From a virus (taxonomy: Duplodnaviria; Caudoviricetes): a stretch of DNA of 64,000 nt. The notes below the pieces were generated by a model that was not told the DNA's origin, searched no databases, and saw only the letters and a list, made by a program, of their open reading frames with translations. Each line of letters starts with the position of its first letter. Position 1 is the first letter of the stretch. The stretch lies in IMG/VR virus record IMGVR_UViG_3300008262_000013. One strand, 5' to 3'. The position numbers and the translations under genes are program-made. Positions 1 through 22,200 of this stretch are shown here, piece by piece.

Positions 1-563
1 TTCCAACACCAGATTTATACAGCCAATTGACAGAAGAAGAATTTATGCCTAAATTGGAAGTATTAAAGGATGGATTGAAGAAAATTGCTAAACATATTTA
101 CGAAAATAAATTACCTCCTGAGAAGTTTGGATGGTTCCAACAATCTAGAGCTCTATGTGCAGCAGGTATAAATTACGTAAGTGTTGATTTAAACGGCGAT
201 TTGAGTCCTTGCCATGGATGCATGTACAAAGAATCGCATTCACATAAATTAGGAAATATTTTTAAAGTTGCAGATTTGGATCAGTTGATTGAAGAAAAAT
301 CTCAAATGTATAAGGATGCGTTGAAGAATCAACCTTTAGATTGTATGAACTGTGACAGTCAATTCTGTATGAAATGTAATGCGGCAACTTATGAAAAATC
401 AGAAAAAGAAACATATCTAGAAAAATGGAGTGATCATACAGCAAATTGGCAAGTCTGTAAAGTATTTAAGACAAACGAGATAGTACATCACGCATTAAGA
501 ACTGCACTAAAGAGTTATAAAAAGCCTGTAATTAAAATTCAGGCTGAACAGTGTACAGTATAA
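1..563 (+). CDS. Radical SAM protein, C-terminal SPASM-type domain (5'-truncated by window edge)
   Basis: The frame is open from position 3 (PTPDLYSQLTEEEF...), so the TTG at 27 is probably not the true start. It has a SPASM-like Cys pattern: CAAG-INYVSVDLNGDLSPCHGC ... CMNCDSQFCMKCNA. The CxxxCxxC motif would lie upstream of the window. Confidence 0.8.
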   Translation, partial: PTPDLYSQLTEEEFMPKLEVLKDGLKKIAKHIYENKLPPEKFGWFQQSRALCAAGINYVSVDLNGDLSPCHGCMYKESHSHKLGNIFKVADLDQLIEEKSQMYKDALKNQPLDCMNCDSQFCMKCNAATYEKSEKETYLEKWSDHTANWQVCKVFKTNEIVHHALRTALKSYKKPVIKIQAEQCTV

Positions 564-572
564 GGATAATAA

Positions 573-1697
573 ATGTTTACATTAGAAGTAAGTGTTACTG
601 AAAAGTGTAATCTAGGTTGTCCGTATTGTTATGTGGCAAACAGACCAACTTGGATGACGAAAGAAGTTTTTGATCAGGGTATGAAAGACCTGCCAAAATT
701 AATGCAAAGGTCCGGTGATAAAGATTATCATGTAAGTTTTTTTGGTGGTGAACCTTTATTAAATTGGGACCTAATAACTCACGCTGTTCCTTATTTAAGA
801 TCGGATGATAAATGTAAAGGTATTAATATCATCACAAATTTAACGATGATTGATCAAGATAAAGCTAATTATTTGAGAAATAATGGTGTTGGCGTTTCTT
901 GGTCTTTTGATGGTATGAGTTCTAATGAGAGTAGACCTTTACTTCCACTTTTGGAAAATACTAATCCAGAAACAGGCGAATTGTTTGATGGTATACTTTC
1001 GATGTATGAATATAAGAAAGATATCATAAAGAATTTGACAAACGGATGTAAGGTCATGATATGGCCAGGAAATACAAAAGACATGAAAGAGAATTTTGAA
1101 TTTCTCTTAGATTGGGGTATAGATCATCCCGATTTTAGTATTGTTCGTGATGATGTTTGGACAGAAGATGATATAATACAGTTTAGATATGAATGTGAAA
1201 GACTTGCAGATTTTTGGATAGAAAAGATAAAATCTGGTAAACCATGTTCAGTAGGATTTTTAAAACTAGCTATTTTAGATATTCTCTATGGTTTAGTGAA
1301 AGGTAAAAGACCTTTTGGTTGTTTTGCTGGAACTAATGGTGGAGTATTGATGAGTTCTGGGGAATTCTACCCTTGCGCTAGGTTTGCATCCAAAAAAATT
1401 ATGAAAATGGATGAACAGTATAATTTTAGGTACTATCAAGACATTTTTAATCCAAAAAATTATGATAAATGTGAACCGTGTGATTTGAAACAGGTGTGTA
1501 ATGCCGGTTGTACATATTCTCAAATTATGAATGATAATAAACCATTAGATAGTATTTGTGAATTGTTCCACATATATTATGAACAAGCAATGCGAGTGGT
1601 AGATGAGTGTAAAGACGAAAGAGTTTTCCAAGATTTGGTTTTAAATTATATCGAAAATGTTGGTGTTGAAAATGAAGGTGTGGAGTGTAGGAACTAA
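573..1697 (+). CDS. Radical SAM/SPASM enzyme (anSME/peptide-maturase-like architecture)
   Basis: CNLGCPYC and FFGGEP in the core, plus C-terminal CFAG...YPC...CEPCDLKQVCNAGC...C typical of a full SPASM domain. Confidence 0.92.
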   Translation: MFTLEVSVTEKCNLGCPYCYVANRPTWMTKEVFDQGMKDLPKLMQRSGDKDYHVSFFGGEPLLNWDLITHAVPYLRSDDKCKGINIITNLTMIDQDKANYLRNNGVGVSWSFDGMSSNESRPLLPLLENTNPETGELFDGILSMYEYKKDIIKNLTNGCKVMIWPGNTKDMKENFEFLLDWGIDHPDFSIVRDDVWTEDDIIQFRYECERLADFWIEKIKSGKPCSVGFLKLAILDILYGLVKGKRPFGCFAGTNGGVLMSSGEFYPCARFASKKIMKMDEQYNFRYYQDIFNPKNYDKCEPCDLKQVCNAGCTYSQIMNDNKPLDSICELFHIYYEQAMRVVDECKDERVFQDLVLNYIENVGVENEGVECRN

Positions 1698-1698
1698 C

Positions 1699-2547
1699 AT
1701 GAAAATTGTTTCTTGCACCAGTCAAGATAAAATTCTTAGAATTAACTGGCATATATTAAATTGGTGTAATTTAAAATGTTCCTACTGTAATGTAAAGGAA
1801 CATTTGAGTTATGATTATAATGATAATACTCAAATTTCAAATAATTATAAATTGATTATAAGTAGATTAAAAACTATTTCTAAACCTTTTGAGATTTGTT
1901 TGACTGGTGGGGAACCAACATTACATCCCAATATCGAAGATATATTAAGTGGATTAAATGAAATTGAAAATTTAACTAAAATTTATTTTTTTACTAACTT
2001 AACTAGATCAGAAAATTTTTATAAAAATATAAAAAGTTTTTCGAAAGTTACATATTACGCATCCTTTCACCCCGAATATCACAAAGAAGATTTTTTAGAT
2101 AAGTGTAAAAATCTAAACTGTGAGGTTCATATAAGTATGATGCCTGAATATAAAAATTACATTTTAAAAATTATTGATAAGTGTAAGTTGGAGGATATAA
2201 AATTTACATTAAATTTTTTAAGAGACACAAAATATTATTCAAGTAATTTAGAAGAAGATTTTTTCGTAGAAGCTTCTACTGCTGAATCTATGATTGATAT
2301 GGATGTTTTATATGATAATGGCTTTCGAGAAAATACTACAAATTTAAGATTATTATACGATAAAAAAAATAATTTCAAAGGCTATAAATGTTTACCGGAA
2401 TCTTTTCAAATAGAATTAAATAATGTAGTTAAAAATGTTTGCACTAACGAAATTATGCCATTATCTTTAAAAGATATTACGAAAAAGGTTATTTGTCCAA
2501 AAGAAGTTTGTGAAGGTGGACTTATGATGTATCCTAAGGAAATTTAA
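1699..2547 (+). CDS. Radical SAM enzyme with short C-terminal Cys (twitch-like) extension
   Basis: CNLKCSYC, LTGGEP and C-terminal GYKC...VC...ICPKEVC. ATG 1699 (right after the upstream stop at 1697) is preferred over the ORF-track start at 1657. Confidence 0.88.
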   Translation: MKIVSCTSQDKILRINWHILNWCNLKCSYCNVKEHLSYDYNDNTQISNNYKLIISRLKTISKPFEICLTGGEPTLHPNIEDILSGLNEIENLTKIYFFTNLTRSENFYKNIKSFSKVTYYASFHPEYHKEDFLDKCKNLNCEVHISMMPEYKNYILKIIDKCKLEDIKFTLNFLRDTKYYSSNLEEDFFVEASTAESMIDMDVLYDNGFRENTTNLRLLYDKKNNFKGYKCLPESFQIELNNVVKNVCTNEIMPLSLKDITKKVICPKEVCEGGLMMYPKEI

Positions 2548-2876
2548 TGAAGAAAAATTTTAAAAGTATTGTATCTATACCTATTAAAGTTGAGATGCAA
2601 CCAGTTGAACATCAAAGCAATAAAGTTTTGACTGTTGATGATTTGTCGAAACAAATAGAAGAAGCTAAAAAGGGAAAAGCCAAAGTCGATAGTAAGTATG
2701 TAGGATTTGAACTGACTGAGAGAGGACATTTATTCGAATATAAATTTGATTATGTTAAATTTTTGGACAATATGTCATTCATAATCAAAACGGCAAAACA
2801 GCGTAAAGAAATGAATCCTAATAATGTCTATACAATGGATAAAACTAAAAGTGCTAGACGAAAAAAAGAAATATGA
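2547..2876 (+). CDS. Hypothetical protein (109 aa, basic)
   Basis: Abuts or overlaps both neighbours (stop/start coupling); no recognisable motif. Confidence 0.65.
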   Translation: MKKNFKSIVSIPIKVEMQPVEHQSNKVLTVDDLSKQIEEAKKGKAKVDSKYVGFELTERGHLFEYKFDYVKFLDNMSFIIKTAKQRKEMNPNNVYTMDKTKSARRKKEI

Positions 2877-3766
2877 ACGCCGAAACTTTCAAAAAAAAGT
2901 ATCCTCAAATAAATTTTTATGTAGGACATGAAACGGATAAAACTGTAACTAAAGATTCGGGAGTAAATGTATTATATTTCACAAATAAATGTAATTTAGC
3001 TTGTACATATTGTTATGAAGATTTGCCTGGTCGCCCTCCACAAATTTTGTCTAAAGAAGATATTAAAAAAAGTATCGATAGAGTTATAGAAAGAGAAGAT
3101 CCCAATAGTCAAACATTATTTGTTCTTTTTGGTGGAGAAGCTACTATGGAATGGGATAATGTTTGTTATGCCATGAATTATGCCTATACAAAAAAGAAAA
3201 ATGTTCATTTTAATTTAAACACAAATGGCATAAGATACCTAAAACAAAGTTTTATAGAGGAAACAAAAAACAATTTTTTTTATAAAAAAAACTTGTTAAG
3301 TATAGACGTTAGTTTTGACGGTATAGGAAATTCGGATAGAGTCACACACGGCGGCAAGGATTCAACTAATTTAATGATCCAAGTTTTCAGAAATTTGAGA
3401 AAAAACGCAATGAAATTTAGGATAAGATACACCATACATCACAAAAACGTTCATAATTGCTATGAAGATATGTCCAATATTATTAGATATTTTAAACCAA
3501 CCCGTCTTATAACATCCGTTGCGTGGGAAACTCTCAATAAAATTCAAATTGACTTGCTCCAAAACATGAAAGAAAGTCTCAGGAAAGATTGGATAAATAG
3601 GATAATTGATGTTCCAGTTTGTGAGTTATTTTGTGACATGTGTGATGGATGTGGTGAGAGAAAGGAAGTAAAAACTTATTTTACTGACGAGGGTAATGTA
3701 ACCACATATGGTAATTATGAGAACTCCCCGAAATTTCATGATTTTAAAGAAAAGGTAATAATATGA
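2873..3766 (+). CDS. Radical SAM enzyme (anSME-like core, reduced C-terminal Cys cluster)
   Basis: CNLACTYC, LFGGEA, SFDG motif, and C-terminal CELFCDMCDGC. Confidence 0.9.
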   Translation: MNAETFKKKYPQINFYVGHETDKTVTKDSGVNVLYFTNKCNLACTYCYEDLPGRPPQILSKEDIKKSIDRVIEREDPNSQTLFVLFGGEATMEWDNVCYAMNYAYTKKKNVHFNLNTNGIRYLKQSFIEETKNNFFYKKNLLSIDVSFDGIGNSDRVTHGGKDSTNLMIQVFRNLRKNAMKFRIRYTIHHKNVHNCYEDMSNIIRYFKPTRLITSVAWETLNKIQIDLLQNMKESLRKDWINRIIDVPVCELFCDMCDGCGERKEVKTYFTDEGNVTTYGNYENSPKFHDFKEKVII

Positions 3767-4155
3767 GCACTGATAGAGAAATTGTAATTGAAAAGTTAAC
3801 GAGTATTTCACAAAATATTAAAGAGATATCGGAATATGATGAAGGCCTCGCCAACTTAATTTGGATAGGTTTTGACACAGCTATGAGTTTAGCACAATCT
3901 ATTTCTGAAAATAATGAGAAAAAGGAACAAATTGATATTTCTGTTTACATTCAACAAATTTGTGATGCTTTGGGTGTTGATATTGAACAAATGGTTTTAT
4001 CAATTATTCAAAATAACAATACTCAAGAATCTAGTAATAAAGAGCCGGACTTGGAAACTTTAGACTTTATAACATCCGATCTTGATGACTATGAAAAGTT
4101 TTTAGCAAAAAGTTCAGCAAAAAATAATTTAGATTTTTTATCAAAGGAAATATAA
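3763..4155 (+). CDS. Hypothetical acidic helical protein (130 aa)
   Basis: 4-nt overlap with the upstream rSAM; ends 1 nt before the Cys-repeat gene; no recognisable motif. Confidence 0.65.
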   Translation: MSTDREIVIEKLTSISQNIKEISEYDEGLANLIWIGFDTAMSLAQSISENNEKKEQIDISVYIQQICDALGVDIEQMVLSIIQNNNTQESSNKEPDLETLDFITSDLDDYEKFLAKSSAKNNLDFLSKEI

Positions 4156-4156
4156 G

Positions 4157-4765
4157 ATGGCTTTAGGTAAAATGTTTGACACTACTCTTGGAGTAGGTAC
4201 TAACACAACTCCTGCTGGTGAACATAAAAGGCTATCAATAACTATACAAGGAACTGTTGGTAGTAATGCAGTGAATTATGATCTTGCGAATGTTGTAGCT
4301 GGAGAGGATTTAATAACTAGATCGTTTTTTCAATCGCTGCTTGATAAAGCAAAAGAAGAAAATACGAGAAGGGGAGGCAGCGCCACTAAAGGTTCGTTAT
4401 CAACAACAAACATTAGAGCTGCCGACTTTAATAATATCCGAGCACTTTTTGCTGTTGCCGATTCTAGGACAAATCAAGTTTATAATGATTGGTCTGGTGC
4501 AAATGCTAATTTGCCTAATGGTCCGACAGTAAATAGTCCCACAATAACAACCTTTCCTACTACTGCTGCACCAACTGGTGTTCCAGCAGCAGTTACCACA
4601 GATCCAGCAACTCAAATTAGAGCTACAATTCTGAATTCTCTCATTAATGCTTTGAATTCTGCTGGGCAAGTTTGCACCTGTAATTGTAATTATTGTACTT
4701 GTAATTGCAATTATTGTACATGTAACTGTAATTACGCATGTACCTGCAACTGTAATTACTCCTAA
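4157..4765 (+). CDS. Putative modified-substrate/precursor protein with C-terminal (CTCNCNY)x4 repeat; N-terminal part virion-protein-like
   Basis: Ends ...QVCTCNCNYCTCNCNYCTCNCNYACTCNCNYS*, with 12 Cys in the last 30 aa and none elsewhere. AAGGA RBS upstream. Embedded among radical SAM genes. Confidence 0.75.
   Translation: MALGKMFDTTLGVGTNTTPAGEHKRLSITIQGTVGSNAVNYDLANVVAGEDLITRSFFQSLLDKAKEENTRRGGSATKGSLSTTNIRAADFNNIRALFAVADSRTNQVYNDWSGANANLPNGPTVNSPTITTFPTTAAPTGVPAAVTTDPATQIRATILNSLINALNSAGQVCTCNCNYCTCNCNYCTCNCNYACTCNCNYS
4673..4759 (+). repeat. Four 21-nt coding repeats encoding CTCNCNY
   Basis: tgcacctgtaattgtaattat / tgtacttgtaattgcaattat / tgtacatgtaactgtaattac / (gca) / tgtacctgcaactgtaattac; all differences are synonymous. 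Confidence 0.97.
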
Positions 4766-4776
4766 TTAAAAATATT

Positions 4777-5238
4777 ATGTTTTTTCAACTAAATCATTTA
4801 GAAGAAACCAATATGTCTTACATAAGACATTTTAATCATGGAATAAGATTGGGATCTTGGTTATTTTTGTGTTCCATCATTTTTTTAATTTATTGTCTTT
4901 TCTCTTTAAAATTTTTAGAAAACTTTGTGATAGCACGAATAAACACAATGTATCATGGATTAATGTTGCGATGGTTTGAAGATGAAACATTTAATCGTGG
5001 AAAACCAGAAAAAGATGTTTTAGAAGAAAAGAAATATAAAAAGCAGTATGTAAAATTGATCGAAGATGGAATGATAAATCCTTTCAATAAAGTTAAAATA
5101 TTTAATGGACTGTTAATTGCATCCATTACTAGTATAACACATTCTTTTATACCACAAATATTTGTGCATCATGCTGCCACCAATGTAATAAGATTATATT
5201 TTAATTATAAAATAATGGAGAAATTAAATGAAAAATGA
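4777..5238 (+). CDS. DUF6356-like small membrane-associated protein with internal insertion
   Basis: N-terminal NHLEETNMSYIRHF and C-terminal HSFIPQIF...AATNVIRL resemble the two halves of the DUF6356 pattern (H...E.Y..H / HA..P.LF...AS..I..L); recognised by eye. Confidence 0.45.
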   Translation: MFFQLNHLEETNMSYIRHFNHGIRLGSWLFLCSIIFLIYCLFSLKFLENFVIARINTMYHGLMLRWFEDETFNRGKPEKDVLEEKKYKKQYVKLIEDGMINPFNKVKIFNGLLIASITSITHSFIPQIFVHHAATNVIRLYFNYKIMEKLNEK

Positions 5239-5632
5239 TAGAGTTGAAATTGAAGGTATTGATGCGAATACTTATGCTGGAAAAGCAATTAATGCATGTA
5301 AGTTAAAAGCAAGAGGAATTTTTGGAGATGAACTTTTAACTTTTAAACTTTTGGATTTTGTAAGTTTTTTAATGTTAAATAATGAATTTACGTCAAAAGG
5401 TTATTTTATTAGTGAACATAATAGGGAAGAAATTTATATAAAAATTATAGAAACTGGTGATATACAATTAATAAATGATTTGGAAAAATATATTAATCTT
5501 AGAGATTCTATAAAAGAATTACAAAGAAAAAAAGATGAATTTTACGATATTATTGAAAAATTAAATAATTTATCAAACTTGAATGATGAAACGAGTGTTA
5601 ATGAAATTGTAGAGTCTTATCTAAGGAGATAA
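5228..5632 (+). CDS. Hypothetical protein (134 aa)
   Basis: Coupled ORF in the operon; no recognisable motif. Confidence 0.65.
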   Translation: MKNDRVEIEGIDANTYAGKAINACKLKARGIFGDELLTFKLLDFVSFLMLNNEFTSKGYFISEHNREEIYIKIIETGDIQLINDLEKYINLRDSIKELQRKKDEFYDIIEKLNNLSNLNDETSVNEIVESYLRR

Positions 5633-5634
5633 AT

Positions 5635-6627
5635 TTGATAACCTTAATAAATGGACCTAAAAGTATACATTTAAGATATATTGCTAGAAGTATTTTAGAT
5701 TCTGAAAAGATATGGAATTTTGAAGATTATACTGTAAAATATAAAAATGATGGATTCATAATTTTCGATTCAGAAGGAACAAATATATATTGCAATAACT
5801 CGGAATTGGGTAATATAAACAATGATCTTTTAATAATGACCGAAGGTCAGAAAACTTATCTATTGGAAGAAATAGATAAGTTTAGTCACGACATTAATGA
5901 AAAAATTGTAGAACATCATTTCATAGATTCTTGGCCTACAACAAGTATAGATAATTTATTCAGTGAAGAATGTTTTTTGGAAAATTATGAATCTTTAGAA
6001 TATGAAATGGAGTATCAAAAACTTTTAGATGACTTGAAGGATGATAGTATAACTAACATATGGACTGGAAGATTTTCTGCTTCTTGTATAAAAACCCTAA
6101 GGGAAAAGTTAGGAACAGAAAATGTAAGAGTTATAAACTTTTTCAGGAATCCTAGTGCTTGCATTTTTGGCAATCAATTAGATCCTGATTGTCAGTTAAA
6201 AAATGGATTAATTTCTATTTTAAATATGGTAATGGTTAAAAATTTACCAAATACCTTTAATATTAGATATGAAGATTTTTTAACCAATAAAAATTTTCAT
6301 CTAAATGAAAATCAGATAGATTTTCCGGAAAAAATTGTAAATTATAATGGTATTATTAGTCTTTATGAAAAAGAAAACTATAGATTAGAATTAATAAATG
6401 AAAATTTGATGGATCAGTTAAATCAAAACTTTTTGGATTTTGACTTGATAAAAAATTTAAAAATTGGAATGAGACCAAATAATTATAAAGATTATGAAGG
6501 TTTTGAAAAATATATGACGTTATTAGAAAATAATTTAAATTTAGAAATTGCGAATAATATTCCAAAAAACTTTTTTGAATTTTTAGGTTATACTCCATTA
6601 ACAGTGGAACAAATTATCACCGGTTAA
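5635..6627 (+). CDS. Sulfotransferase-like (P-loop fold) protein
   Basis: TTG start. Degenerate N-terminal LINGPKS, plus VINFFRNP and IRYEDF resembling the RDP and RYEDL motifs of PAPS-dependent sulfotransferases. Confidence 0.45.
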   Translation: MITLINGPKSIHLRYIARSILDSEKIWNFEDYTVKYKNDGFIIFDSEGTNIYCNNSELGNINNDLLIMTEGQKTYLLEEIDKFSHDINEKIVEHHFIDSWPTTSIDNLFSEECFLENYESLEYEMEYQKLLDDLKDDSITNIWTGRFSASCIKTLREKLGTENVRVINFFRNPSACIFGNQLDPDCQLKNGLISILNMVMVKNLPNTFNIRYEDFLTNKNFHLNENQIDFPEKIVNYNGIISLYEKENYRLELINENLMDQLNQNFLDFDLIKNLKIGMRPNNYKDYEGFEKYMTLLENNLNLEIANNIPKNFFEFLGYTPLTVEQIITG

Positions 6628-6631
6628 TTCT

Positions 6632-7510
6632 GTGTCTTTAGTAAATCTGAGAAACTATGATTTAGTTATAACTACTTCATTTGGTTTCAAATTTGGAATT
6701 TGTGGTCATTTATTTGAAATGATTGAATATTATTGGGCTATAAAAAATTGGACAAATCTAAATCCTTGTATACTATTGTCCGATGGTACTACAATAGACG
6801 AATTTAATATAGCTTTAAACACGAAATATGATAATCTAGTTGTTGAAAATTTAATATACCATCCTTTTCCAAAACTATTATTGTCAAAAAATTTATTGAT
6901 AGTTGACGGATCTTCAAGACTTGATAATTCGGAAATATATACAGATAATTTTTTTCTATTCAGATGTCATGAAAAAAATTATGACTTTTATATAAACAAT
7001 AAAGCGCAATGTCACTTATTTCAAGATTTTGAAATATATGATGATATTCCTAAAAAAATAAATGTTTTTGATTATAAGAAAAAATTATTATATTCAAAAT
7101 TTAAAAAAATAAATGATGATGTAGAAAATTCTGTAATGTTTTATTTGACAGATGTTAGTAGATTTATGTCTGAAGAAACAATAACTGAAATTTCCAATAA
7201 ATATTCTTTCAACAACACAGTAGTATTTACAAATAAACCAGAACTTTATACAAAAATAAAAACATATAAAGTTCCAGTCCCAGACATGTGGAATAAATTT
7301 TCTACATATGTTTATACTAAATTACCTGGCAAAAAAGATTGTTCCAATAGATTTATTTTAGAGTGTATGCACTATGATAAAGAAGTTGTTTATGATATAG
7401 ATTATTATGATAAAGCTTTAGAAATTAGAAAAAAGGATGGAATAAAAAATACATCTTTAGAACAAGGTGATTTTTTTATCAATTATATCAATGAACAAAT
7501 TAAGTGTTAA
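6632..7510 (+). CDS. Hypothetical protein, possibly degenerate GT-B glycosyltransferase-like
   Basis: 292-aa ORF; C-terminal DCSNRFILECMHYDKEVVY loosely resembles the GT-B E...G.PV segment. Confidence 0.35.
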   Translation: MSLVNLRNYDLVITTSFGFKFGICGHLFEMIEYYWAIKNWTNLNPCILLSDGTTIDEFNIALNTKYDNLVVENLIYHPFPKLLLSKNLLIVDGSSRLDNSEIYTDNFFLFRCHEKNYDFYINNKAQCHLFQDFEIYDDIPKKINVFDYKKKLLYSKFKKINDDVENSVMFYLTDVSRFMSEETITEISNKYSFNNTVVFTNKPELYTKIKTYKVPVPDMWNKFSTYVYTKLPGKKDCSNRFILECMHYDKEVVYDIDYYDKALEIRKKDGIKNTSLEQGDFFINYINEQIKC

Positions 7511-10791: not shown

Positions 10792-10792
10792 T

Positions 10793-12678: not shown

Positions 12679-12690
12679 GGATTGATAATT

Positions 12691-13293: not shown

Positions 13294-13871
13294 AAGTGTC
13301 TTTGACAGGTTGGAACGGTTTTCTTTCTAAAAAATTGAGAGAAAGAACAGAAATAAAATGGCAAGAAGATGTGAATGGTAGTGATATACTTTTTCTTATG
13401 GGCAGTCCTACGTTTACGGGTTCTACTTTGGATAAAAACGATTCTCAAGTTATGCACAATTATGTAAAAAATACAATTAATAAAATAGACTCCTATTCAA
13501 ACCCTATTATTTTTGCTAGTACCACTGGTGTGAATGATATTGATTTAAATCATTCGGGAACAACTTGTTATAATTTGTGTAAACTTTACATTGAAAATTA
13601 TATAATGAATAAATGTGAAAATTGGATGATATTACGTATTGGCACTATTATATCCGATAATAAGTATGATATTGATAAAATGCGTTTCGATAGAATACAA
13701 CAGAGAATGCTCAAAAATGATTTTACAAACATAGAGTTTGAAGATAATTATCTATTTGTAGATGAATTTGTAAATACTACAATTAATAATATTTTAAACT
13801 TTAATATTGGTATAGTTCATTATAAACTAACAAAAATGACTTTACCAAAATTAATGCTTTTAGGAAAGTAA
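13290..13871 (+). CDS. Short NAD-dependent epimerase/dehydratase (SDR)-like protein
   Basis: VSLTGWNGFLS Rossmann start, ASTT, YNLCK (YxxxK) and ILRIG. Confidence 0.7.
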   Translation: MKVSLTGWNGFLSKKLRERTEIKWQEDVNGSDILFLMGSPTFTGSTLDKNDSQVMHNYVKNTINKIDSYSNPIIFASTTGVNDIDLNHSGTTCYNLCKLYIENYIMNKCENWMILRIGTIISDNKYDIDKMRFDRIQQRMLKNDFTNIEFEDNYLFVDEFVNTTINNILNFNIGIVHYKLTKMTLPKLMLLGK

Positions 13872-13872
13872 A

Positions 13873-15526: not shown

Positions 15527-16206
15527 AAAAAGAAATTTTAGAATATTCTTTTGAAAAAGATGTTGCTCATATACCTTCAGCTTTATCAATGTCGGACTAT
15601 ATTGAGGAGTTGTTTAGTGAAAAATTAGTAACACCTGACGATAAAATAATAATAGGAAAACCTTTTGGAGCTCAAGCCTATTATATAATATGGAAAAAAA
15701 TGGGATATTTGGATGATATACATAAATTAAGTCCTGTTTTAAAAATGAGTGAAGTTGATTTTGTAGATTTTTCTGAAGAAACTATGGGAGATTCATTGGG
15801 TATAGCAGCAGGCATAGCTCTAACTACAGAAAAATTAGTTTGGGTAAATCTATCTGATGCAACTTTACAAATGGGACCAACACTTGAAGCAATACAGTTT
15901 ATAGGACAAAATTGTTTAAAGAATGTTTTAGTAACAGTTGATTATAATGGAACTCAAGTAACGGGGTATACAAAAGATATAATTAATACTGATCCTATCG
16001 TAGACATGTTTAGAGGATATAATTGGGAAGTATTTCATGATTTGAACAATTTTAGTATTGGTAAAAAGCCTAAAGTTTTTATTATGAAAACAATTAAAGG
16101 TAATGGAATACCAAGCATGGAAAAGGATATAAAAAAATGGCATTACAGGAAAATACAATCACAAGAAGAATTACAGTCGTTGGTGCAGGAACTTCAGGTT
16201 ATTTAA
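15523..16206 (+). CDS. Transketolase-like, N-terminal ThDP-binding subunit
   Basis: AHIPSALS, MGDSLGIAAGIA, SDA...VDYN (GDG..N variant) and TIKGNG...WH. Confidence 0.85.
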   Translation: MKKEILEYSFEKDVAHIPSALSMSDYIEELFSEKLVTPDDKIIIGKPFGAQAYYIIWKKMGYLDDIHKLSPVLKMSEVDFVDFSEETMGDSLGIAAGIALTTEKLVWVNLSDATLQMGPTLEAIQFIGQNCLKNVLVTVDYNGTQVTGYTKDIINTDPIVDMFRGYNWEVFHDLNNFSIGKKPKVFIMKTIKGNGIPSMEKDIKKWHYRKIQSQEELQSLVQELQVI

Positions 16207-17480
16207 CTGTTTTATATTTTTGCAAAAAATATCCTGATATGCAGGTGACATGGATTTATCCAGAAGTCAACCAGCCCATAGGTGTTGGTGAAGCAACAGT
16301 ACCACAAGTTCAAAGATTTTTAGCTGAGTTGGGAGTATCTGTTCAAGATATGATATTACATTGTAATGCAAATTTAAAAATTGGAGCAATGTTTGAAAAT
16401 TGGTCACCAACACAAAAATCTTTTTTTCATCCATTTGGATCCACAGATGAAAATTGTTTGGATTTGGAGTGGTACTTAAAAAATAATCAAATTCCACCAA
16501 ATATTTTAGAAGCTTATCCCGAAACATTAGAATATATGTTGGAGAATGATGATTTTCCAGATTTTGCAACAAATTTTGATGTAAGAGAATTGTGTAAGTA
16601 CTTGGATAAAATTTTTGAAAATTTTAAAAATTTAAAAGTAATACGTAAAACTATAACAGATGTTGATGAAATTGAAGATGATCACATCATAGATGCCACA
16701 GGATTCTCCAAAACATTAATCAATAAAACTGATAAAGAAAATTTCAAAAGTATTAAACACATTATACCTAATAATAAAGCTTTTGTTTATCGAGCTGAAT
16801 ATTCCGATAAAGAGAATCAACAACAACCTTATACAACAATTACCGCGGTGACGCATGGTTGGATATGGACTATACCATTGAAAGATGTTATAACATTTGG
16901 TCACGTACATGATGATCGTTACGACACTAAACAAGAATACATAAATTTTGTGGAGTCTAGACTTGGTTACAAAATAGACGAATCTAAAATTGTTGAAGTT
17001 AAAATGATTACTGGTAGGAATATAAAACATTTTAGAAAACAAGGAAACAAGTCGATTTATTCAATTGGTTTAAGTTCTTATTTTATTGAACCTATAGAAG
17101 CTACAGGATTATATCTTGCAACTTATGGTATTAAATTATTAGATCGTCTGTTAAAAAATGAAATAACCGTGGATGAGTATAACAATGATTATAACAGAGA
17201 ATTTGATGCTGTTACAGACTTTATTACTACATATTATAAATTTTCAAAAAACTCTAATGAATATTGGGATCATTTTAAAAAATTAAATATAGAAACTCAT
17301 AGGAAAAATAATATTTTTCCGGCCAGAAGTTGGAATTTAATATTATCTGGAATGGGACAAGAAGAAAAAAAATACAAAATAAAAGCAGAACGTATAATAA
17401 AAATTAGAAAAAATAATGTAAAATATAGTGAATGGTTAAAAGAATTTCATGAGAAAAACTCTACATCAATATCTAAGTAA
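16137..17480 (+). CDS. Flavin-dependent (tryptophan-halogenase-family) enzyme 1
   Basis: VVGAGTSG, IGVGEAT, CNANLK (PrnA K79-equivalent position), GWIWTIP (WxWxIP) and FIEPIEATG. Confidence 0.85.
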   Translation: MALQENTITRRITVVGAGTSGYLTVLYFCKKYPDMQVTWIYPEVNQPIGVGEATVPQVQRFLAELGVSVQDMILHCNANLKIGAMFENWSPTQKSFFHPFGSTDENCLDLEWYLKNNQIPPNILEAYPETLEYMLENDDFPDFATNFDVRELCKYLDKIFENFKNLKVIRKTITDVDEIEDDHIIDATGFSKTLINKTDKENFKSIKHIIPNNKAFVYRAEYSDKENQQQPYTTITAVTHGWIWTIPLKDVITFGHVHDDRYDTKQEYINFVESRLGYKIDESKIVEVKMITGRNIKHFRKQGNKSIYSIGLSSYFIEPIEATGLYLATYGIKLLDRLLKNEITVDEYNNDYNREFDAVTDFITTYYKFSKNSNEYWDHFKKLNIETHRKNNIFPARSWNLILSGMGQEEKKYKIKAERIIKIRKNNVKYSEWLKEFHEKNSTSISK

Positions 17481-17928
17481 ATTAAAACATCCCGACATTT
17501 ATCTATTACATGGAGATATGTGGGGTTTCCCCACAAAAGGCAATGTAATTAATTGCGGTATACAAGAACCAAATATGGTTAATATTGCAGCTGGTCTTGC
17601 CAGTCAAGGTAAAAAAGTGATAGTATATGGTGTTGCTGGATTTGTAATTTATAGAGCTTACTCTCAAATCAAACTCAATATTAAAGATTGGGCAGAAAAT
17701 TTTGGTTCGATTATATTTGTAAATGCTGGTTATAATGGGTGTTATTCATACTGCGGTAGAGGACATCTCGTATATGATGATCATTTATTGATGAATGCTT
17801 TAGACATTCCGTTATATACTCCCGACGATTGTAGTGGTTTTATACGTACAGTAAAAGAAGGACTACAACAGAACGGAGTTCGTTTTATTCGATTGGGTTG
17901 GGATGGTGCACCATGGAAATTGCGGTAA
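17449..17928 (+). CDS. Transketolase-like, pyrimidine-binding (middle) subunit, short
   Basis: GDMW and NCGIQEPNMVNIAAGLASQG (GIAEQNM..AAGLA motif), GRGH; lacks the usual third domain. Confidence 0.85.
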   Translation: MRKTLHQYLSKLKHPDIYLLHGDMWGFPTKGNVINCGIQEPNMVNIAAGLASQGKKVIVYGVAGFVIYRAYSQIKLNIKDWAENFGSIIFVNAGYNGCYSYCGRGHLVYDDHLLMNALDIPLYTPDDCSGFIRTVKEGLQQNGVRFIRLGWDGAPWKLR

Positions 17929-18509
17929 CTGGACACACGGGATTTATTGGTAGAAATTTGGTCGAAGAATTTAAACGCCAAGGCTATAATCCAATTTTAA
18001 TAGACAAAAATTTTACACCAGTTAAGTGTGATAGGATATATCATTTGGCTTGTCCTGCAACTACATATCACATTACAAATAATACTATTAGTGTTATGGA
18101 TGCTATATTAGATTTAACTCGCAAAGCAATGAATATATGTAGTGATGCTTTATTTGTAAATGCTAGTTCTTTTGGCGCTGCTGATATTAATGAAAGTAAG
18201 CAAGGTGGATATAATGTTGCTAAAAGATGTATGGAAATATATTTGTCGCATTCTAAAATTAATTATATAAATTATAGAATACCTTCCGTTTATGGTCAAG
18301 ACGCCAGTACCGATTCCTTTATTAAAAGGTGTGTTTTAGGTACTGCTTACAAACCCACAAACTCCTCACAGATTTGGCCGATATCTCATGTTGATGATGT
18401 CGTTGAAGCTTTAATTAATCTTTCAGAAATTAAAATTGAATATATTACTTTGGGTGAAATATACGAACAATTTACTTCGGGAAAAAGAAATTTGATAAAA
18501 CATGAATAA
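17913..18509 (+). CDS. Short NAD-dependent epimerase/dehydratase
   Basis: IAVTGHTGFIG, IYHLACPA, ASS, YNVAK and YRIPSVYG. ATG 17913 is preferred. Confidence 0.85.
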   Translation: MEIAVTGHTGFIGRNLVEEFKRQGYNPILIDKNFTPVKCDRIYHLACPATTYHITNNTISVMDAILDLTRKAMNICSDALFVNASSFGAADINESKQGGYNVAKRCMEIYLSHSKINYINYRIPSVYGQDASTDSFIKRCVLGTAYKPTNSSQIWPISHVDDVVEALINLSEIKIEYITLGEIYEQFTSGKRNLIKHE

Positions 18510-19767
18510 TATAGAAAATATTACAGTTATTGGTGCAGGCACTACAGGTTATTTAACCGTTTTTCATTTGTGTGAAACTTATCCTAATAAAAAAATTACT
18601 TGGATTTATCCGAAAGAAAATCAACCAATCGGTGTTGGAGAAGCTATTATACCAGATGTTAGTAAATTTTTACAAAATTTTGGAGTTAAACATCAGGATA
18701 TATTAAAACATTGTAATGGAACACTAAAATTTGGAGTCTATCTGAAAGGATGGAATAAACCAGGAGAAGATTTTACTTTTCCTTTTGGTTTCGAATCTGC
18801 TAATCCTAGACACAACTCGTCCAGTCAAGATAGAATAATGAAAACTAATAAAATACCAAAAAGAATATTTGATTACCAAAACATTTCTACGCATTTTAGG
18901 GTTACCGAACTATTGGAATATCTAGACAACTATAAAAAGAAATATTCTAATTTAACTGTTATTAGAGAAAAGGTGACATTGAATGATATAAAAGACTGTT
19001 ATGATTTAATAATAGATTGCACTGGATTTGAAAGAACTGTTAGTTATATTCCAAATAATTTTAAAAACATTTCGGATAAAATACCAAATAATCAAGTTTT
19101 TCTTTTTAGACATACTTACACAGATAGGGAAAAACAATGTGTTCCTTATACCGTTGCAGAAGCAATGAATTATGGTTGGTGTTTTAATATTCCTTTAAGG
19201 AATGAATTGGCTTGCGGTTATGTACATGACGGAAAATTTGATGTTAAAGAAGAATATATTAATTATTTGGAAAAAAAGTTTAATATAAAAGTTGAACCTT
19301 CGAGTATAAAATCGTTAAAGATGGTAACTGGTAGAAATAAAATACATTTAAAAAACAATATTGTAGCTATGGGTCTTGCCTCATCTTTTATTGAACCGTT
19401 GGAATCTACAGGTTTATATTTGGTAACTAGTGCTCTTAGAAAATTGTGTGATTATATAGATAAGAAAATTACTGAAACTGAATATAATTTTTTTATTAAT
19501 GAAGAATTCGATACTATTACAGATTTTATAGTCGAACACTACAAATATTCTAAAAGAGACAATGAATATTGGAACTTTTATAAAAAAGTAAATACCAAAA
19601 AACGCACAGTTAATATATTTCCTAATTCTGGATGGGACACAATAAAAAGTGGTTTTCTCTCCGAAGTACCTAGGCCTACTGAACCCATGGATAGTAAAGA
19701 ATTAATTGAAATACATAAAGGTAAACCTTTTCATGAGTGGATATTAAACGAAGAAAATTACATATGA
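18502..19767 (+). CDS. Flavin-dependent (tryptophan-halogenase-family) enzyme 2
   Basis: VIGAGTTG, IGVGEA, CNGTLK, GWCFNIP (WxWxIP variant) and FIEPLESTG; paralog of 16137..17480. Confidence 0.85.
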   Translation: MNNIENITVIGAGTTGYLTVFHLCETYPNKKITWIYPKENQPIGVGEAIIPDVSKFLQNFGVKHQDILKHCNGTLKFGVYLKGWNKPGEDFTFPFGFESANPRHNSSSQDRIMKTNKIPKRIFDYQNISTHFRVTELLEYLDNYKKKYSNLTVIREKVTLNDIKDCYDLIIDCTGFERTVSYIPNNFKNISDKIPNNQVFLFRHTYTDREKQCVPYTVAEAMNYGWCFNIPLRNELACGYVHDGKFDVKEEYINYLEKKFNIKVEPSSIKSLKMVTGRNKIHLKNNIVAMGLASSFIEPLESTGLYLVTSALRKLCDYIDKKITETEYNFFINEEFDTITDFIVEHYKYSKRDNEYWNFYKKVNTKKRTVNIFPNSGWDTIKSGFLSEVPRPTEPMDSKELIEIHKGKPFHEWILNEENYI

Positions 19768-20687
19768 ATAATTTGATATTAGGTGGAGCTGGTTTTATAG
19801 GACAGCACTTAACACATAAACTTTTAAAAACTAGACAACAAAGAGTTACTATAATAGATAATTTATCTACCAGTAAAATAAATTTAGATAACTTTTCTGA
19901 ATACAAAAATTTATTTAAATTTGTTGAAGGTGACATTTCCAAAATGGAAGATAAAGAACTACTCAAACATATGAGAGATCACAATAGAATTTTTCATTTT
20001 GCGGGCAGTGTTGGTGTCGAACATATTGATAAGGATCCATCAGGCACTCTTTTCAATAACAATTCTTTAACTAATAAATTAATACCATTATTTAAAGAAT
20101 CCAAGAGGCATGTAATATTTTCCAGTACCAGTGAAATTTACGGAAATGGACCCTTCAACGAAGAAGATTGTAGTAACATAGGACCTAGCAATAAGTTAAG
20201 ATGGGGATATGCAACAAGTAAATTGATGGCAGAATTTTTATTAAATGCTAGTGGTGTGCCGTATACTATTTTAAGATTTTTCAATATAGTTGGACCTGGA
20301 CAACTATCAGATTACGGTATGGTTTTACCTAAATTTATAGAAGCTGCAAAACGAAATGAAGATTTAATTGTTTATGGAACTGGTGAACAGATAAGGTGTT
20401 TTTTTCATATTGATGATGCGACAGATGCTATAATAAAATGTACCAATTTTAAAAATGAACTTTTTAATGTTGGAAATGATGAACCGATTACCATAAACAA
20501 ACTTGCCAAAAAAGTTATTAAAATAAGTGGATCTAGTAGTAAAATTGTTCACATTCCTTATGAAAAAGTTTTTAGTAAAAACCACGGTGATATACAAAAA
20601 AGAATTCCCGATATAACCAAACTCAGAGAAAAAACAAATTTCAGACCAAAGAAAAATTTGGATGATATCATAAAAGATATGTTATGA
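19764..20687 (+). CDS. NDP-sugar epimerase/dehydratase (extended SDR, UDP-glucuronate decarboxylase/GalE-like)
   Basis: LILGGAGFIG, IDNLSTS, SSTSEIYG, YATSK, LRFFNIVGPGQ and RCFFHIDD. ATG 19764 overlaps the upstream TGA. Confidence 0.92.
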   Translation: MNNLILGGAGFIGQHLTHKLLKTRQQRVTIIDNLSTSKINLDNFSEYKNLFKFVEGDISKMEDKELLKHMRDHNRIFHFAGSVGVEHIDKDPSGTLFNNNSLTNKLIPLFKESKRHVIFSSTSEIYGNGPFNEEDCSNIGPSNKLRWGYATSKLMAEFLLNASGVPYTILRFFNIVGPGQLSDYGMVLPKFIEAAKRNEDLIVYGTGEQIRCFFHIDDATDAIIKCTNFKNELFNVGNDEPITINKLAKKVIKISGSSSKIVHIPYEKVFSKNHGDIQKRIPDITKLREKTNFRPKKNLDDIIKDML

Positions 20688-21328
20688 AAATAGTTTTTAT
20701 ATTTGCACATTTAGACGATGAGTCTTTTGGGCCAGCCGGAACAATATCAAAATTGTGTGAAGATAATGAAGTTACAATTGTATCTTTATGCAAAGGAAAT
20801 CGTCCAGGTAACGAACATGTTGAATCCAAAAGATTGAATTCTTTTTATAAAGTTTGTGATTATTTTGGTGCGAAACCTATAGTTTTTAATAACTCCGATT
20901 GCACTTTAACTTTAGAAAAGTGTTTGAGTGATGTTGAATTGGTTATCAACGAAATACAGCCAGAGATAGTCTTTACGAATAATATATCGGACATACATAG
21001 AGATCATAGAATAGTTTCCGAATCTGTTATGGTTGCCTGTAGACCTAAACCAAATTCTTCGGTAAAACAACTCTATATGTGCGAGATACCAGCTTCAACC
21101 GAATGGTCTATGGGTCAAATAGAGCCTATTTTTATACCAAATTATTTTGTGAATGTTGAGTATTATATGCATAAAAAGAAATTCGTATTGTCACTATATG
21201 ATACGGAAACGTATTCTTATCCTGATGCTAGATCAGAAAAAAGTATGATAGTTCTATCGGAACAAAGAGGTAAACAAGTTGGATATAATCACGCAGAATC
21301 ATTTAAGATGATATATAACCTTCAATAG
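20684..21328 (+). CDS. PIG-L/LmbE family deacetylase
   Basis: FAHLDDE, DIHRDH, and PNYFV...K...Y..E C-terminal pattern. Confidence 0.9.
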   Translation: MKIVFIFAHLDDESFGPAGTISKLCEDNEVTIVSLCKGNRPGNEHVESKRLNSFYKVCDYFGAKPIVFNNSDCTLTLEKCLSDVELVINEIQPEIVFTNNISDIHRDHRIVSESVMVACRPKPNSSVKQLYMCEIPASTEWSMGQIEPIFIPNYFVNVEYYMHKKKFVLSLYDTETYSYPDARSEKSMIVLSEQRGKQVGYNHAESFKMIYNLQ

Positions 21329-21857
21329 AAACCCTCTCTCTACCATAAAATTCATTAATACCGTAAGACTTTAAGACGGTTTGATATAATCCATTTAAAT
21401 CGTTATTATATGGGAAACAAAACTTAACCGGAAAAATATTTAAGTTTTTATTGAACCATTCCAACATTAATTCGGTGTCCATTTTTATATGGTCTATTTT
21501 ATCTTTCAGGCTGCTGAAAAAATTCAAATTTTTGTGAAAATGTGAATGTCCTCCTATAATAACGTTTTTTCTAGTAGATAAATAACTTATCTGGTCCACA
21601 TTCATAAAATCTTCATAATTTCCTTCGAATGCTTTTTTATGGCAATTTTCGGAACTTATGAATTTTTTAGATTGTTTTCCTTTACAAATAATGTTTGTTG
21701 ATACAAAAAATATTTTTTCTGTTTCTATTTTTTCAATTTTTGGGTAATAATAGAAGTGGTTGTAAAGTCCATCATCAAAAGTTAGAACAAAATCTTTTAA
21801 TTTTGGAACTATTAAGTTTTTTTCTATTTTATGTATCATTAAAACTGGTTTGTCCAT
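21303..21857 (-). CDS. Polysaccharide deacetylase (NodB/CE4-like)
   Basis: LMIHK, LTFDDG, IGGHSHFH and FCFPY motifs. ATG at 21857 is preferred over the longer track start. Confidence 0.88.
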   Translation of the reverse strand: MDKPVLMIHKIEKNLIVPKLKDFVLTFDDGLYNHFYYYPKIEKIETEKIFFVSTNIICKGKQSKKFISSENCHKKAFEGNYEDFMNVDQISYLSTRKNVIIGGHSHFHKNLNFFSSLKDKIDHIKMDTELMLEWFNKNLNIFPVKFCFPYNNDLNGLYQTVLKSYGINEFYGRERVSIEGYISS

Positions 21858-21862
21858 ATCAA

Positions 21863-21869
21863 ATAAATA
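21863..21869 (+). promoter_or_regulatory. T4-type late promoter (ATAAATA) upstream of erpA/iscA
   Basis: Intergenic ATAAATA followed by an AGGAGA RBS and ATG 21886; the same motif precedes the core structural genes. Confidence 0.6.
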
Positions 21870-21885
21870 TAGTAGGAGAAAATTA

Positions 21886-22200
21886 ATGCTTAATATAACT
21901 GAATCTGCTGTAAATGAAATCAAACAATATTTAGACGATGAAAACAAATACTTGAGGGTCTATGTTGAGGGTGGTGGATGTTCTGGTTTTAAATATGGTT
22001 TTGATTTTGAAGAATCTGTTTCCGAAGATGATTTTGAAATTCCTTTAGATGGTTTTTCAATTCTTGTAGACTCTTTCAGTATGCAATATTTGGAAACCGC
22101 AACTTTGAATTTCAAAGAAGATATTATGGGACACACTTTTACTATAGAAAACCCTAATGCACAGACGACCTGTGGCTGTGGAAGTAGCTTTTCGGTATAG
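21886..22200 (+). CDS. erpA: A-type Fe-S carrier protein (ErpA/IscA/HesB family)
   Basis: LRVYVEGGGCSGFKYGF...LVDSFSMQYL...NPNAQTTCGCGSSF with all three conserved Cys. Strong RBS before ATG 21886. The ErpA versus IscA assignment is tentative. Confidence 0.9.
   Translation: MLNITESAVNEIKQYLDDENKYLRVYVEGGGCSGFKYGFDFEESVSEDDFEIPLDGFSILVDSFSMQYLETATLNFKEDIMGHTFTIENPNAQTTCGCGSSFSV

Follow-up and report, generated by a model that had tools for sequence, protein, structure and literature searches.

The first 22,200 nucleotides of the 64,000-nucleotide stretch of DNA analysed here (the window), which belongs to IMG/VR virus record IMGVR_UViG_3300008262_000013 and is part of a T4-like myophage, form a dense gene island lying directly before the tail-fibre genes. 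The island consists of two linked but separable modules and an iron-sulfur (Fe-S) supply gene; it is not one pathway. Module A (about 1-5632) encodes three radical S-adenosylmethionine (radical SAM) proteins of the CteB/PapB-like SPASM type (rSAM1, rSAM2 and rSAM4), a protein that ends in cysteine-rich heptads, and a helical partner protein, s134; module B (5635-21947) is a sugar/redox cassette; and the supply gene encodes an ErpA-type carrier. Judged from the sequence comparisons given below, the module A core probably cross-links the Cys-repeat protein enzymatically, and this protein is probably a virion fibre protein. We hold with moderate confidence the fuller reading, in which module A would mature the fibre protein, module B would add sugar-type chemistry and ErpA would supply Fe-S clusters. 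An earlier note on this DNA, made from the letters alone, had taken the island as a single dedicated pathway of about 30 genes that either decorates a virion protein or makes a peptide or glyco-conjugate. The single pathway is not supported: module B also occurs without the Cys-heptad gene and the core family, and whole blocks are missing from a complete related genome, G001. The choice between a virion protein and a conjugate falls to the virion protein for the core only.

The Cys-repeat protein listed in that note is indeed present. It is encoded at 4157-4765 and has 202 aa: its N-terminal body is variable, the motif E-x-x-R-R is conserved, and a helix leads into three contiguous CTCNCNY heptads, one Ala and a fourth heptad. 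The DNA of the four heptad copies differs at synonymous sites only. A search of 5.8 billion proteins yielded 554 relatives at 90% clustering, all without names. Exactly four heptads are found in 118 of the 120 closest relatives, and 119 of these 120 carry the E-x-x-R-R motif in the N-terminal half; in the same set Asn is nearly invariant at heptad positions 4 and 6, and Tyr or Phe occupies position 7. This constancy, together with the purely synonymous differences between the copies, points to selection acting on the peptide. In more distant homologs from phages the number of heptads rises to as many as 28, position 4 being Asp, Gln or Glu and position 7 His; some of them occur as three to four tandem paralogs. 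Among cultured phages, only Campylobacter Firehammerviruses have the heptad repeat. When the window was compared by megablast with 50,697 phage records, no match was obtained for the structural half, and the sole match of all was window 4672-4734 to Campylobacter phages, with 90.5% identity over 63 nt. Since this segment is the heptad array itself, the repeat is kept even at the codon level across very distant phages.

Several family members show further variations. Arrays of three or four Cys-heptad paralogs lie at 8045-10609 of locus L003 and 9501-11558 of locus L007; the paralogs share identical heptads and a terminal 12-aa SDExxKxxxEY[MI] tail but differ in their middle parts. The Cys-repeat proteins of L013, L016, L022 and L004 begin with Thr-rich C-x-x-H repeats besides their C-terminal heptads, and these N-terminal repeats may be a second modified or metal-binding segment. 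In a 429-aa member at 5584-6870 of L055, a long insert rich in glycine separates the E-x-x-R motif from the heptads and resembles glycine-rich domains of phage fibres; its similarity to the Gly_rich_2 fibre protein of the window was not significant.

Many homologs run on past the last heptad with the sequence SD-x-x-x-K. The domain PF13884 (Peptidase_S74) was detected in all four long homologs tested, at 24-32 bits against a cutoff of 22, and starts directly after the last heptad. S74 is an intramolecular chaperone for the folding of trimeric tail fibres and spikes, from which it afterwards releases itself by cleavage. Because the longer homologs carry PF13884 right after the heptads, we concluded that the Cys-heptad family is S74-derived, though the window copy is not itself an S74 member. 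Tails of chaperone size are present in 42 of the 120 close relatives and tails of 4-20 aa, mostly with an SDxxxK start, in 57, while 21 have almost none. The family is thus like the S74 fibres and spikes of the endosialidase and T5 L-shaped fibre type, in that PF13884 with the Ser and Lys of SDxxxK stands directly after the heptads in many members; it is unlike them in that the window copy has lost the domain and stops at the Ser where the S74 domain of its relatives begins. In our full-text literature search no paper was found that describes a Cys-heptad segment before an S74 domain together with radical SAM partners. In locus L121 (2805-3790), a Cys-rich fibre protein ends in an SDERLK tail and the rest of the S74-like domain is apparently encoded by a separate open reading frame (ORF) directly downstream, which could be a split gene or a frameshift.

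A homolog has been found in virus particles. The Campylobacter member of the family has 534 aa and seven heptads and is the product of gene 3-9 of phage IBB_35 (60,318 Da, with which the recalculated mass agrees); phrog_26958, to which the window protein belongs, is the family of this Campylobacter virion protein. The product of gene 3-9 is one of 38 virion proteins of IBB_35 identified by mass spectrometry, with 2.6% coverage (PMC3322345, Table S2). The window protein itself matched nothing in Pfam, a profile of the Cys-heptad family had no match among the PDB sequences, and prediction of the window protein as a homotrimer gave a score of 0.01, which speaks neither for nor against trimerisation.

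The linkage between Cys-heptad genes and SPASM radical SAM genes was observed from both sides. Homologs of rSAM1, rSAM2 and rSAM4 all lie within 10 kb in 20 of the 26 IMG/VR loci with the Cys repeat, rSAM4 being present in most, and at least one lies there in 25; the one locus without a SPASM radical SAM gene starts at the Cys gene. For the enzyme side we searched with a 15-sequence alignment of rSAM2 and counted the 51 loci with a full-length family member. A same-strand ORF with heptads of the form CxCxCx[Y/H/F] was present in 43 of them, usually 1.5-3 kb away, and three loci, from Campylobacter phages, carry another kind of Cys repeat, (C-x-x)n, with many Asp, Glu and Asn residues. A heptad ORF was absent from all 11 loci in which the match was to a generic radical SAM only. 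Homologs of s134 accompany the pair in nearly all loci, the Campylobacter phages included. The AlphaFold2 (AF2) model of s134 is all-helical with a predicted local distance difference test (pLDDT) score of 90, and gave no informative fold match in the PDB or the AlphaFold database (AFDB) clusters (Foldseek, VIA wide). As for the two other small proteins of this region, s109 had no Pfam, PHROG or Atlas match and s130 no Pfam or PHROG match. In phages CPt10, CP220 and CP21 (loci L077-L079), a second rSAM2-family gene with an s134-like neighbour lies at about 15.8-17.1 kb beside the (C-x-x)n protein, which has up to 245 aa; these phages may therefore hold two such systems.

For the enzymes, Pfam calls were judged by gathering scores and NCBIfam calls by equivalog cutoffs. 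Seven ORFs of the island score above the gathering threshold of Pfam Radical_SAM (31-64 bits against 29.5), and CxxxCxxC is visible in each. The window edge cuts rSAM1, whose full-length homolog in locus L002 (368 aa, 97% identical over the window part) has both Radical_SAM (55.4 bits) and SPASM domains. The island therefore has eight radical SAM genes, the number given earlier. In NCBIfam, rSAM2 matches PapB best, with 132 bits where 340 are required, and all other named maturase families lie lower; QhpD is also among the NCBIfam matches of the radical SAMs, at 77.8 bits. Against the PDB, the rSAM2 family profile matched the SCIFF thioether synthase CteB (5wgg) with an E value of 6e-34, followed by anSME, and it aligns to CteB residues 101-449, that is, the radical SAM and SPASM domains. 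The CxxxCxxC motif and seven SPASM cysteines (C250, C268, C300, C303, C309, C313 and C329) are invariant in the 15 rSAM2 homologs. In module B, the best PDB match of rSAM5 is SkfB (E 1e-10, radical SAM core only), and rSAM6 had no match among PDB sequences.

Two known systems come close to this arrangement. In ranthipeptide maturation (CteB/CteA and PapB/PapA), SPASM radical SAM enzymes with CxxxCxxC and the seven-Cys motif likewise stand beside a Cys-rich repeat substrate, and the heptads contain Thr, Asp and Asn, which are thioether acceptors. The differences are that rSAM2 scores 132 where the cutoff is 340 bits and is without the N-terminal recognition domain, that three different enzymes go with each substrate here, and that the proposed substrate is a tail-fibre type protein, about 200-530 aa in length, whose gene belongs to a lytic phage and comes with neither a protease nor an exporter gene. 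In the QhpD/QhpC system a SPASM radical SAM enzyme staples Cys to Asp or Glu in a structural subunit that is retained, the small subunit of quinohemoprotein amine dehydrogenase; that is a cellular enzyme subunit with no repeat array, and the similarity is only distant.

We propose that rSAM1, rSAM2 and rSAM4 would modify the CTCNCNY heptads of the 4157-4765 protein, and that s134, perhaps with s109 and s130, may assist. The most likely chemistry would be thioether links that join Cys sulfur to a carbon atom in an adjacent Thr, Asn/Asp or Tyr residue. In thermocellin, freyrasin and the streptococcal NxxC peptides, Thr, Asp and Asn serve as thioether acceptors. An aromatic cyclophane through the invariant Tyr, Phe or His is a conceivable link of another type, and the coincidence of three Cys per heptad with three enzymes is at most suggestive. 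As a result, the distal part of a small fibre would be stapled covalently. An unusual group of sugar type would most likely be built and attached by module B, perhaps on the same fibre protein, and ErpA would help to load the many Fe-S enzymes of the phage.

The same enzymes might instead act on a peptide. The Cys-heptad protein would then be a precursor of the kind that gives ribosomally synthesised peptides with post-translational modifications (RiPPs), its leader with E-x-x-R-R would guide the radical SAMs, the cross-linked core peptide would be released to act on the host, competitors or metals, and module B would tailor it. The three to four precursor-like tandem paralogs of L003 and L007, the variable N-terminus before an invariant core, and enzymes nearest to RiPP maturases all agree with this. 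We nevertheless regard it as quite unlikely, given that no protease or exporter gene was detected among the scanned island ORFs, that an S74 chaperone follows the core in many homologs, that one homolog was detected in virions, and that the genes are located among fibre genes.

It is improbable, in our estimate, that the heptads form a metal- or iron-sulfur-binding, or disulfide-laddered, trimeric beta-helix, with the radical SAMs and ErpA serving cluster or metal handling or an unrelated reaction. T4 fibre tips, which have His-x-His iron sites, offer an analogy; alternating Cys residues would face one side of a strand, an ErpA gene lies in or beside the module, and the S74 chaperone typically follows trimeric beta-helical fibre ends. 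According to their family annotations, though, SPASM enzymes of the CteB, PapB and anSME types modify peptide residues, three of them kept beside repeat genes are hard to square with metal loading, and no structural support was obtained.

For the core, the reading as an enzymatically modified virion protein is favoured because of the S74 family, the homolog in a virion proteome and the two-way link to SPASM radical SAMs. Several points weigh against it. Nowhere has a cross-link or a modified peptide been seen. The evidence from virions comes from a distant homolog that has only the repeat region in common with the window protein, at 2.6% coverage in one 2012 study. The window copy is without the S74 domain, its N-terminal part matches no known fibre domain, and the tandem arrays of three to four Cys-repeat paralogs are also compatible with a peptide precursor. 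Many of the loci are near-duplicates from related samples, the independent lineages numbering nearer 15-25 than 50. For no named maturase family do the radical SAMs come near the curated cutoff, and they are without the N-terminal peptide-recognition domain of CteB. Module B, finally, stands without module A in four records, one of them of 147 kb, and its target may be something else.

The island as a whole comprises 32 ORFs, 31 on the + strand and one on the - strand (21303-21947), whose stops and starts mostly overlap or abut, in line with the roughly 30 tightly coupled, nearly one-strand genes reported before. The island is AT-rich, with a GC content of 0.25-0.31; among the fibre and structural genes beyond 22 kb the value is 0.36-0.41. 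The genes, with short-chain dehydrogenase/reductase given as SDR, glycosyltransferase family 2 as GT2, nucleoside and uridine diphosphate as NDP and UDP, 2-oxoglutarate as 2OG and thiamine diphosphate as ThDP, are as follows.

3-563, + strand: rSAM1, C-terminal part only, module A; Pfam SPASM 22.9 bits, SPASM/PapB/SCIFF-like NCBIfam matches.
573-1697, + strand: rSAM2, CteB/PapB-like SPASM radical SAM, module A; NCBIfam PapB 132 bits.
1657-2547, + strand: rSAM3, compact radical SAM, a variable insert; Pfam Radical_SAM 43.8 bits, not at this place in G001.
2547-2876, + strand: s109, small conserved protein, module A of type I loci; syntenic homologs 44-76% identical.
2873-3766, + strand: rSAM4, PapB-like with a short Cys-rich C-terminus, module A; Radical_SAM 47.4 bits, NCBIfam PapB 79.9 bits.
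3763-4155, + strand: s130, small acidic protein; syntenic homologs 35-69% identical in type I loci.
4157-4765, + strand: Cys-heptad fibre-type protein, the proposed substrate; about 170 aa, then four CTCNCNY heptads, ending at Ser; phrog_26958.
4777-5238, + strand: small membrane protein, a variable insert; Pfam DUF6356 36.5 bits, homolog seen only in L002/G001.
5228-5632, + strand: s134, helical partner protein, module A; almost always after the Cys-repeat gene.
5635-6627, + strand: u330; without a Pfam or PDB match.
6632-7510, + strand: u292, a phage family, first gene of module B; phrog_24441 (no named function).
7467-8483, + strand: rSAM5, module B; Pfam Radical_SAM 64.2 bits.
8477-9163, + strand: GT2-family glycosyltransferase, module B; Pfam Glycos_transf_2 40.7 bits.
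9138-10040, + strand: rSAM6, compact, module B; Pfam Radical_SAM 31.3 bits.
10033-10791, + strand: rSAM7, compact, module B; Pfam Radical_SAM 51.9 bits.
10793-11626, + strand: U32a, U32-fold TIM-barrel protein by AF2 model and fold matches, module B.
11605-12678, + strand: rSAM8, module B; Pfam Radical_SAM 49.8 bits.
12682-13293, + strand: 2OG-Fe(II) oxygenase, variable block; Pfam 2OG-FeII_Oxy_5 48.8 bits, block not in G001.
13290-13871, + strand: u193, variable block; phrog_25469 (no named function), without a Pfam match.
13873-14733, + strand: U32b, paralog of U32a (33% identical), variable block; not in G001.
14726-15526, + strand: u266, variable block; phrog_23758 (no named function), without a Pfam match.
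15523-16206, + strand: transketolase-like N-terminal (ThDP-binding) half; Pfam Transketolase_N 33.5 bits (cutoff 22).
16137-17480, + strand: flavin-dependent halogenase 1; Pfam Trp_halogenase 220 bits.
17449-17928, + strand: transketolase-like pyrimidine-binding half; Pfam Transket_pyr 27.2 bits (cutoff 27, borderline).
17898-18509, + strand: short SDR/epimerase-family protein; Pfam Epimerase 53 bits.
18502-19767, + strand: flavin-dependent halogenase 2; Pfam Trp_halogenase 209 bits.
19737-20687, + strand: SDR of the NDP-sugar epimerase/dehydratase/decarboxylase type; Epimerase 132.9 bits, NCBIfam GalE and UDP-xylose-synthase-like below cutoffs.
20684-21328, + strand: PIG-L family deacetylase; Pfam PIG-L 59.1 bits, BshB-like below cutoff.
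21303-21947, - strand: polysaccharide-deacetylase-like protein; Polysacc_deac_1 22.2 bits (cutoff 23.1), syntenic in relatives.
21850-22200, + strand: ErpA-type A-type Fe-S carrier; NCBIfam ErpA 136.9 bits (cutoff 117).
22249-22581, + strand: fibre-assembly-like protein, the first gene past the island; phrog_3304 'L-shaped tail fiber protein assembly', E 5e-21.
22786-28056, + strand: tail fibre protein of 1756 aa, PHROG tail fibre families; followed by a 3128-aa fibre, gp13, gp14 and gp15.

Nearly all of the gene content named in the earlier note was thus recovered: both flavin halogenases, the 2OG-Fe(II) oxygenase and ErpA have clear family matches, and the tail-fibre genes of the structural module follow the island directly. 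Other labels survived in part. The two U32-like proteins are paralogs, and the model of U32a has the U32 fold, with no sequence model matching either. The split transketolase has its N and pyrimidine-binding halves above the Pfam cutoffs, its score as a canonical transketolase being far too low. Two of the three SDRs are Epimerase genes and the third (13290-13871) has only an unnamed PHROG; one of the two to three glycosyltransferases is a GT2, and the candidates at 6632-7510 and 14726-15526 have only unnamed PHROGs and a weak Atlas lead. Of the two deacetylases, PIG-L stands and the second falls just under its cutoff. A sulfotransferase at 5635-6627 was not borne out: no member of the u330 family has a Pfam match and its profile matched nothing in the PDB, although an RNPS motif, seen only in the alignment, is conserved. 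Likewise, u292 was not confirmed as a glycosyltransferase: there was no Pfam or PDB match across its family, and the Atlas lead to a GT1 cluster was weak. Near the unconfirmed sulfotransferase-like gene, sulfate activation is hinted at only by an adenosine 5'-phosphosulfate (APS)-kinase-like gene just upstream of the island in one relative (L030, 4835-5452).

The island had been said to continue past the window edge. It does run off the edge; in relatives, however, what remains upstream is little more than the missing part of rSAM1 and one short UDP-glucose-dehydrogenase-like gene, and then fibre-type genes follow. A 49-mer taken from the start of the window had no exact match in IMG/VR. The co-occurrence survey of the IMG/VR loci and G001 showed that the genes occur together in related phages, as had been anticipated. 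G001 is without rSAM3, the block 2OG-u193-U32b-u266 and halogenase 1, and such insertions or losses of cassettes (halogenase 1, rSAM3 and the block at 12682-15526) account for most of the differences between relatives.

To define module B, an alignment of the U32-like proteins was used as query, and 25 loci with the cassette were obtained: u292, rSAM5, GT2, rSAM6, rSAM7, U32a, rSAM8, the transketolase halves, SDRs, PIG-L and the deacetylase. The module A core lies upstream in 16 of them, four have a degenerate Cys-rich fibre protein (some with S74) and s134, and five are without the core in the locus. Where both are present, module B usually stands directly after s134. Four core-less records, one of them the 147-kb record, which is 65% complete, contained neither the rSAM2 family nor heptads, both of which were found in the positive control. 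Module B is accordingly separable, frequently joined to module A, and seen on hardly any contigs other than those of phages.

The invariant residues of U32a and U32b are C38, C176, C180 and H186, and C207 is nearly so. Neither protein matched a Pfam family at E <= 0.01, PF01136 included, their family profile matched no PDB sequence, and U32a, the only copy scanned there, had no match in NCBIfam or the PHROGs. The AF2 model of U32a (pLDDT 82.6) has 5d88 as its best PDB fold match, and its nine best matches in the Swiss-Prot part of the AFDB are all U32 proteins, MJ1657, TrhP1, UbiU and TrhP among them; the template modelling (TM) scores of the top matches are 0.54-0.63. On the strength of this model, we consider the U32 label right at the fold level, as a U32-type TIM barrel. 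The protein resembles the U32 Fe-S proteins UbiU/UbiV, TrhP and RlhA in that these are its top fold matches and in its conserved Cys and His; it differs from them in the missing PF01136 match, an identity of only 13-17%, and cluster ligands without confident equivalence to those of UbiU.

Halogenases 1 and 2 match Trp_halogenase with E values of 6e-65 and 1e-61, respectively, and both have GAGTxG; the WxWxIP motif reads GWIWTIP in halogenase 1 and is a degenerate GWCFNIP in halogenase 2. The N-terminal transketolase half reaches 55.9 bits in the NCBIfam transketolase model, the cutoff of which is 488, and the two short ORFs contain partial N and Pyr domains only; the pair is ThDP-enzyme-like and not a canonical transketolase. 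Since the two halves are adjacent in G001, halogenase 1 of the window is an insertion between them. A homolog of the second half (17449-17928; 44% identity, E 2e-35) is gene 3-10 of IBB_35 (L028, 5307-5822), directly upstream of the Cys-heptad gene, which hints at a functional tie across very distant phages. In CP21 a homolog of the N-half lies about 50 kb from the Cys-heptad gene.

The content of module B could also suggest an auxiliary metabolic island that remodels the glycan of the host envelope (lipopolysaccharide or capsule) against superinfection, in which case the radical SAMs would act on sugars and the Cys-repeat fibre protein would be a mere neighbour. The nucleotide-sugar SDRs, GT2, PIG-L and polysaccharide-deacetylase-like gene, together with the UDP-glucose-dehydrogenase-like gene upstream in relatives and the ability of module B to stand without module A, would suit this, and the same reading was proposed for glycosyltransferases in the host-recognition clusters of pelagimyophages (PMC7029224). 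On the other hand, Pfam scans of the island, the ORFs of module B included, detected no flippase, polymerase, initiating transferase or other envelope-assembly gene. The U32-like marker gene, moreover, occurs in only 2 of 185,579 species genomes, in both cases on a contig of a metagenome-assembled genome that looks viral and has the same cassette, which indicates that there is no host-cluster source. The two-way link between SPASM radical SAMs and Cys heptads would also be left unexplained, and we consider this account unlikely.

Nor does hypermodification of the phage DNA with a sugar-type or other adduct explain the island well. Radical SAM enzymes do take part in the hypermodification of phage DNA (PMC8989533), and the island has sugar enzymes; pathways of thymidine hypermodification are known to include radical SAM steps. 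Our Pfam and NCBIfam scans of it, however, detected no nucleotide kinase, DNA glycosyltransferase, hydroxymethylase or deazaguanine gene, in agreement with the earlier statement that hallmark genes of nucleotide modification are absent, and the island is placed in the fibre module. This possibility is very remote.

The ErpA protein ends in ...TTCGCGSSF.., which contains the CGCG motif. The likely start of its gene is the ATG at 21886, behind a late-promoter-like ATAAATA at 21863-21869. This is the sole intergenic copy of the motif in the island, the other island copies being within genes. ATAAATA is three-fold depleted in the window (15 copies where 47 are expected) and is found just upstream of gene starts in the structural half, in the manner of a T4-type late promoter core, at 28053, 39007, 45458, 47547, 49322, 54110 and 56671; the full canonical T4 late promoter, TATAAATA, was found once in the window, in front of the scaffold gene. 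In L025, L039 and L045 a homolog of ErpA is located within module A. The placement of the gene fits a role in cluster supply, which by its motif might be exerted late.

A still broader proposal is that the whole island is one virion-maturation factory, making a stapled heptad tip that carries a possibly halogenated or hydroxylated sugar-type group, while ErpA feeds at least ten Fe-S enzymes late in infection. We regard this as doubtful; halogenation, hydroxylation, glycosylation or sulfation of the fibre is something that we only infer. Were it true, it would mean a chemically built receptor-binding tip, with natural-product-type chemistry building part of a virus particle.

The known covalent maturation of phage particles is either autocatalytic, as in capsid chainmail and S74 self-cleavage, or simple glycosylation. 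The phage studied here appears to apply RiPP-type radical chemistry, with its own Fe-S carrier, to a structural fibre protein. Module A is found again in hundreds of sequences from uncultured aquatic phages, and the cultured Campylobacter Firehammerviruses have it too. If our proposal for the core is true, it would account for the 8-12 radical SAM genes of some T4-like phages, so far read as metabolic helpers, would add a new substrate class for SPASM enzymes and would imply chemically hardened or chemically diversified host-binding tips. Module B, for its part, is a reservoir of radical SAM and U32-fold enzymes that are uncharacterised and were seen on few contigs other than those of phages.

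Radical-SAM-rich T4-like phages have been described before. CP220 and CPt10 have 11-12 radical SAM genes (PMC2853527), a T4-like environmental genome has an A-type carrier and 12 radical SAM genes (PMC5332604), and radical SAM cassettes were noted in the pelagimyophage host-recognition cluster (PMC7029224). These phages (CP220, CPt10, IBB_35 and aquatic ones) are like the present one in their many radical SAM genes and, for the aquatic ones, in an A-type carrier; unlike here, the genes were read as metabolic helpers or left open, and no two-module structure was described. The full-text search found no paper that ties phage radical SAM or Fe-S carrier genes to a Cys-repeat fibre protein. New here are the full 22-kb context and its conservation, the split into two modules, the fold-level support for U32 and the tie to the published virion detection of a homolog.

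The setting of the island is that of a T4-like genome. Two giant tail fibres (1756 and 3128 aa; PHROG tail fibre families) lie within 22786-37791, homologs of the neck genes gp13, gp14 and gp15 at 39033-41802, and terminase, sheath, portal, scaffold, major capsid, helicase and SbcCD-type genes at 43-64 kb. The capsid protein is 62-64% identical to its counterparts in cyanophage P-TIM40 and Pelagibacter phage HTVC008M. With a variable island and fibre genes upstream of gp13 and gp14, the region has the form of the host-recognition cluster of T4-like aquatic myophages described in PMC7029224.

Near-identical DNA is present in 20 public runs from 16 studies, labelled as lake or freshwater metagenomes and in some cases 'fungus metagenome'; no RNA run is listed among them. 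From these runs and labels we concluded that this is a widespread freshwater phage. Contigs from three runs of three studies, none of them flagged as a possible source of the window, jointly cover all of 10-30 kb, and one 5.2-kb contig bridges the junction of island and fibre genes at 17478-22682 with zero differences. G001, a complete 214-kb IMG/VR genome with terminal repeats, keeps the island in the same order, beginning with the first radical SAM and finishing with ErpA, after which come the same genes for fibre assembly and fibres; upstream of the island, too, there are fibre-like genes. The concern, raised in advance, that the region might be a misassembled or chimeric host-derived contig can therefore be set aside: the island is not an assembly chimera, because G001 and independent freshwater runs show the same order. 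At window 26000-29700, within the two giant fibre genes, the contigs of other samples have numerous skips and back-joints as well as raised depth, which fit internal repeats and strain variation.

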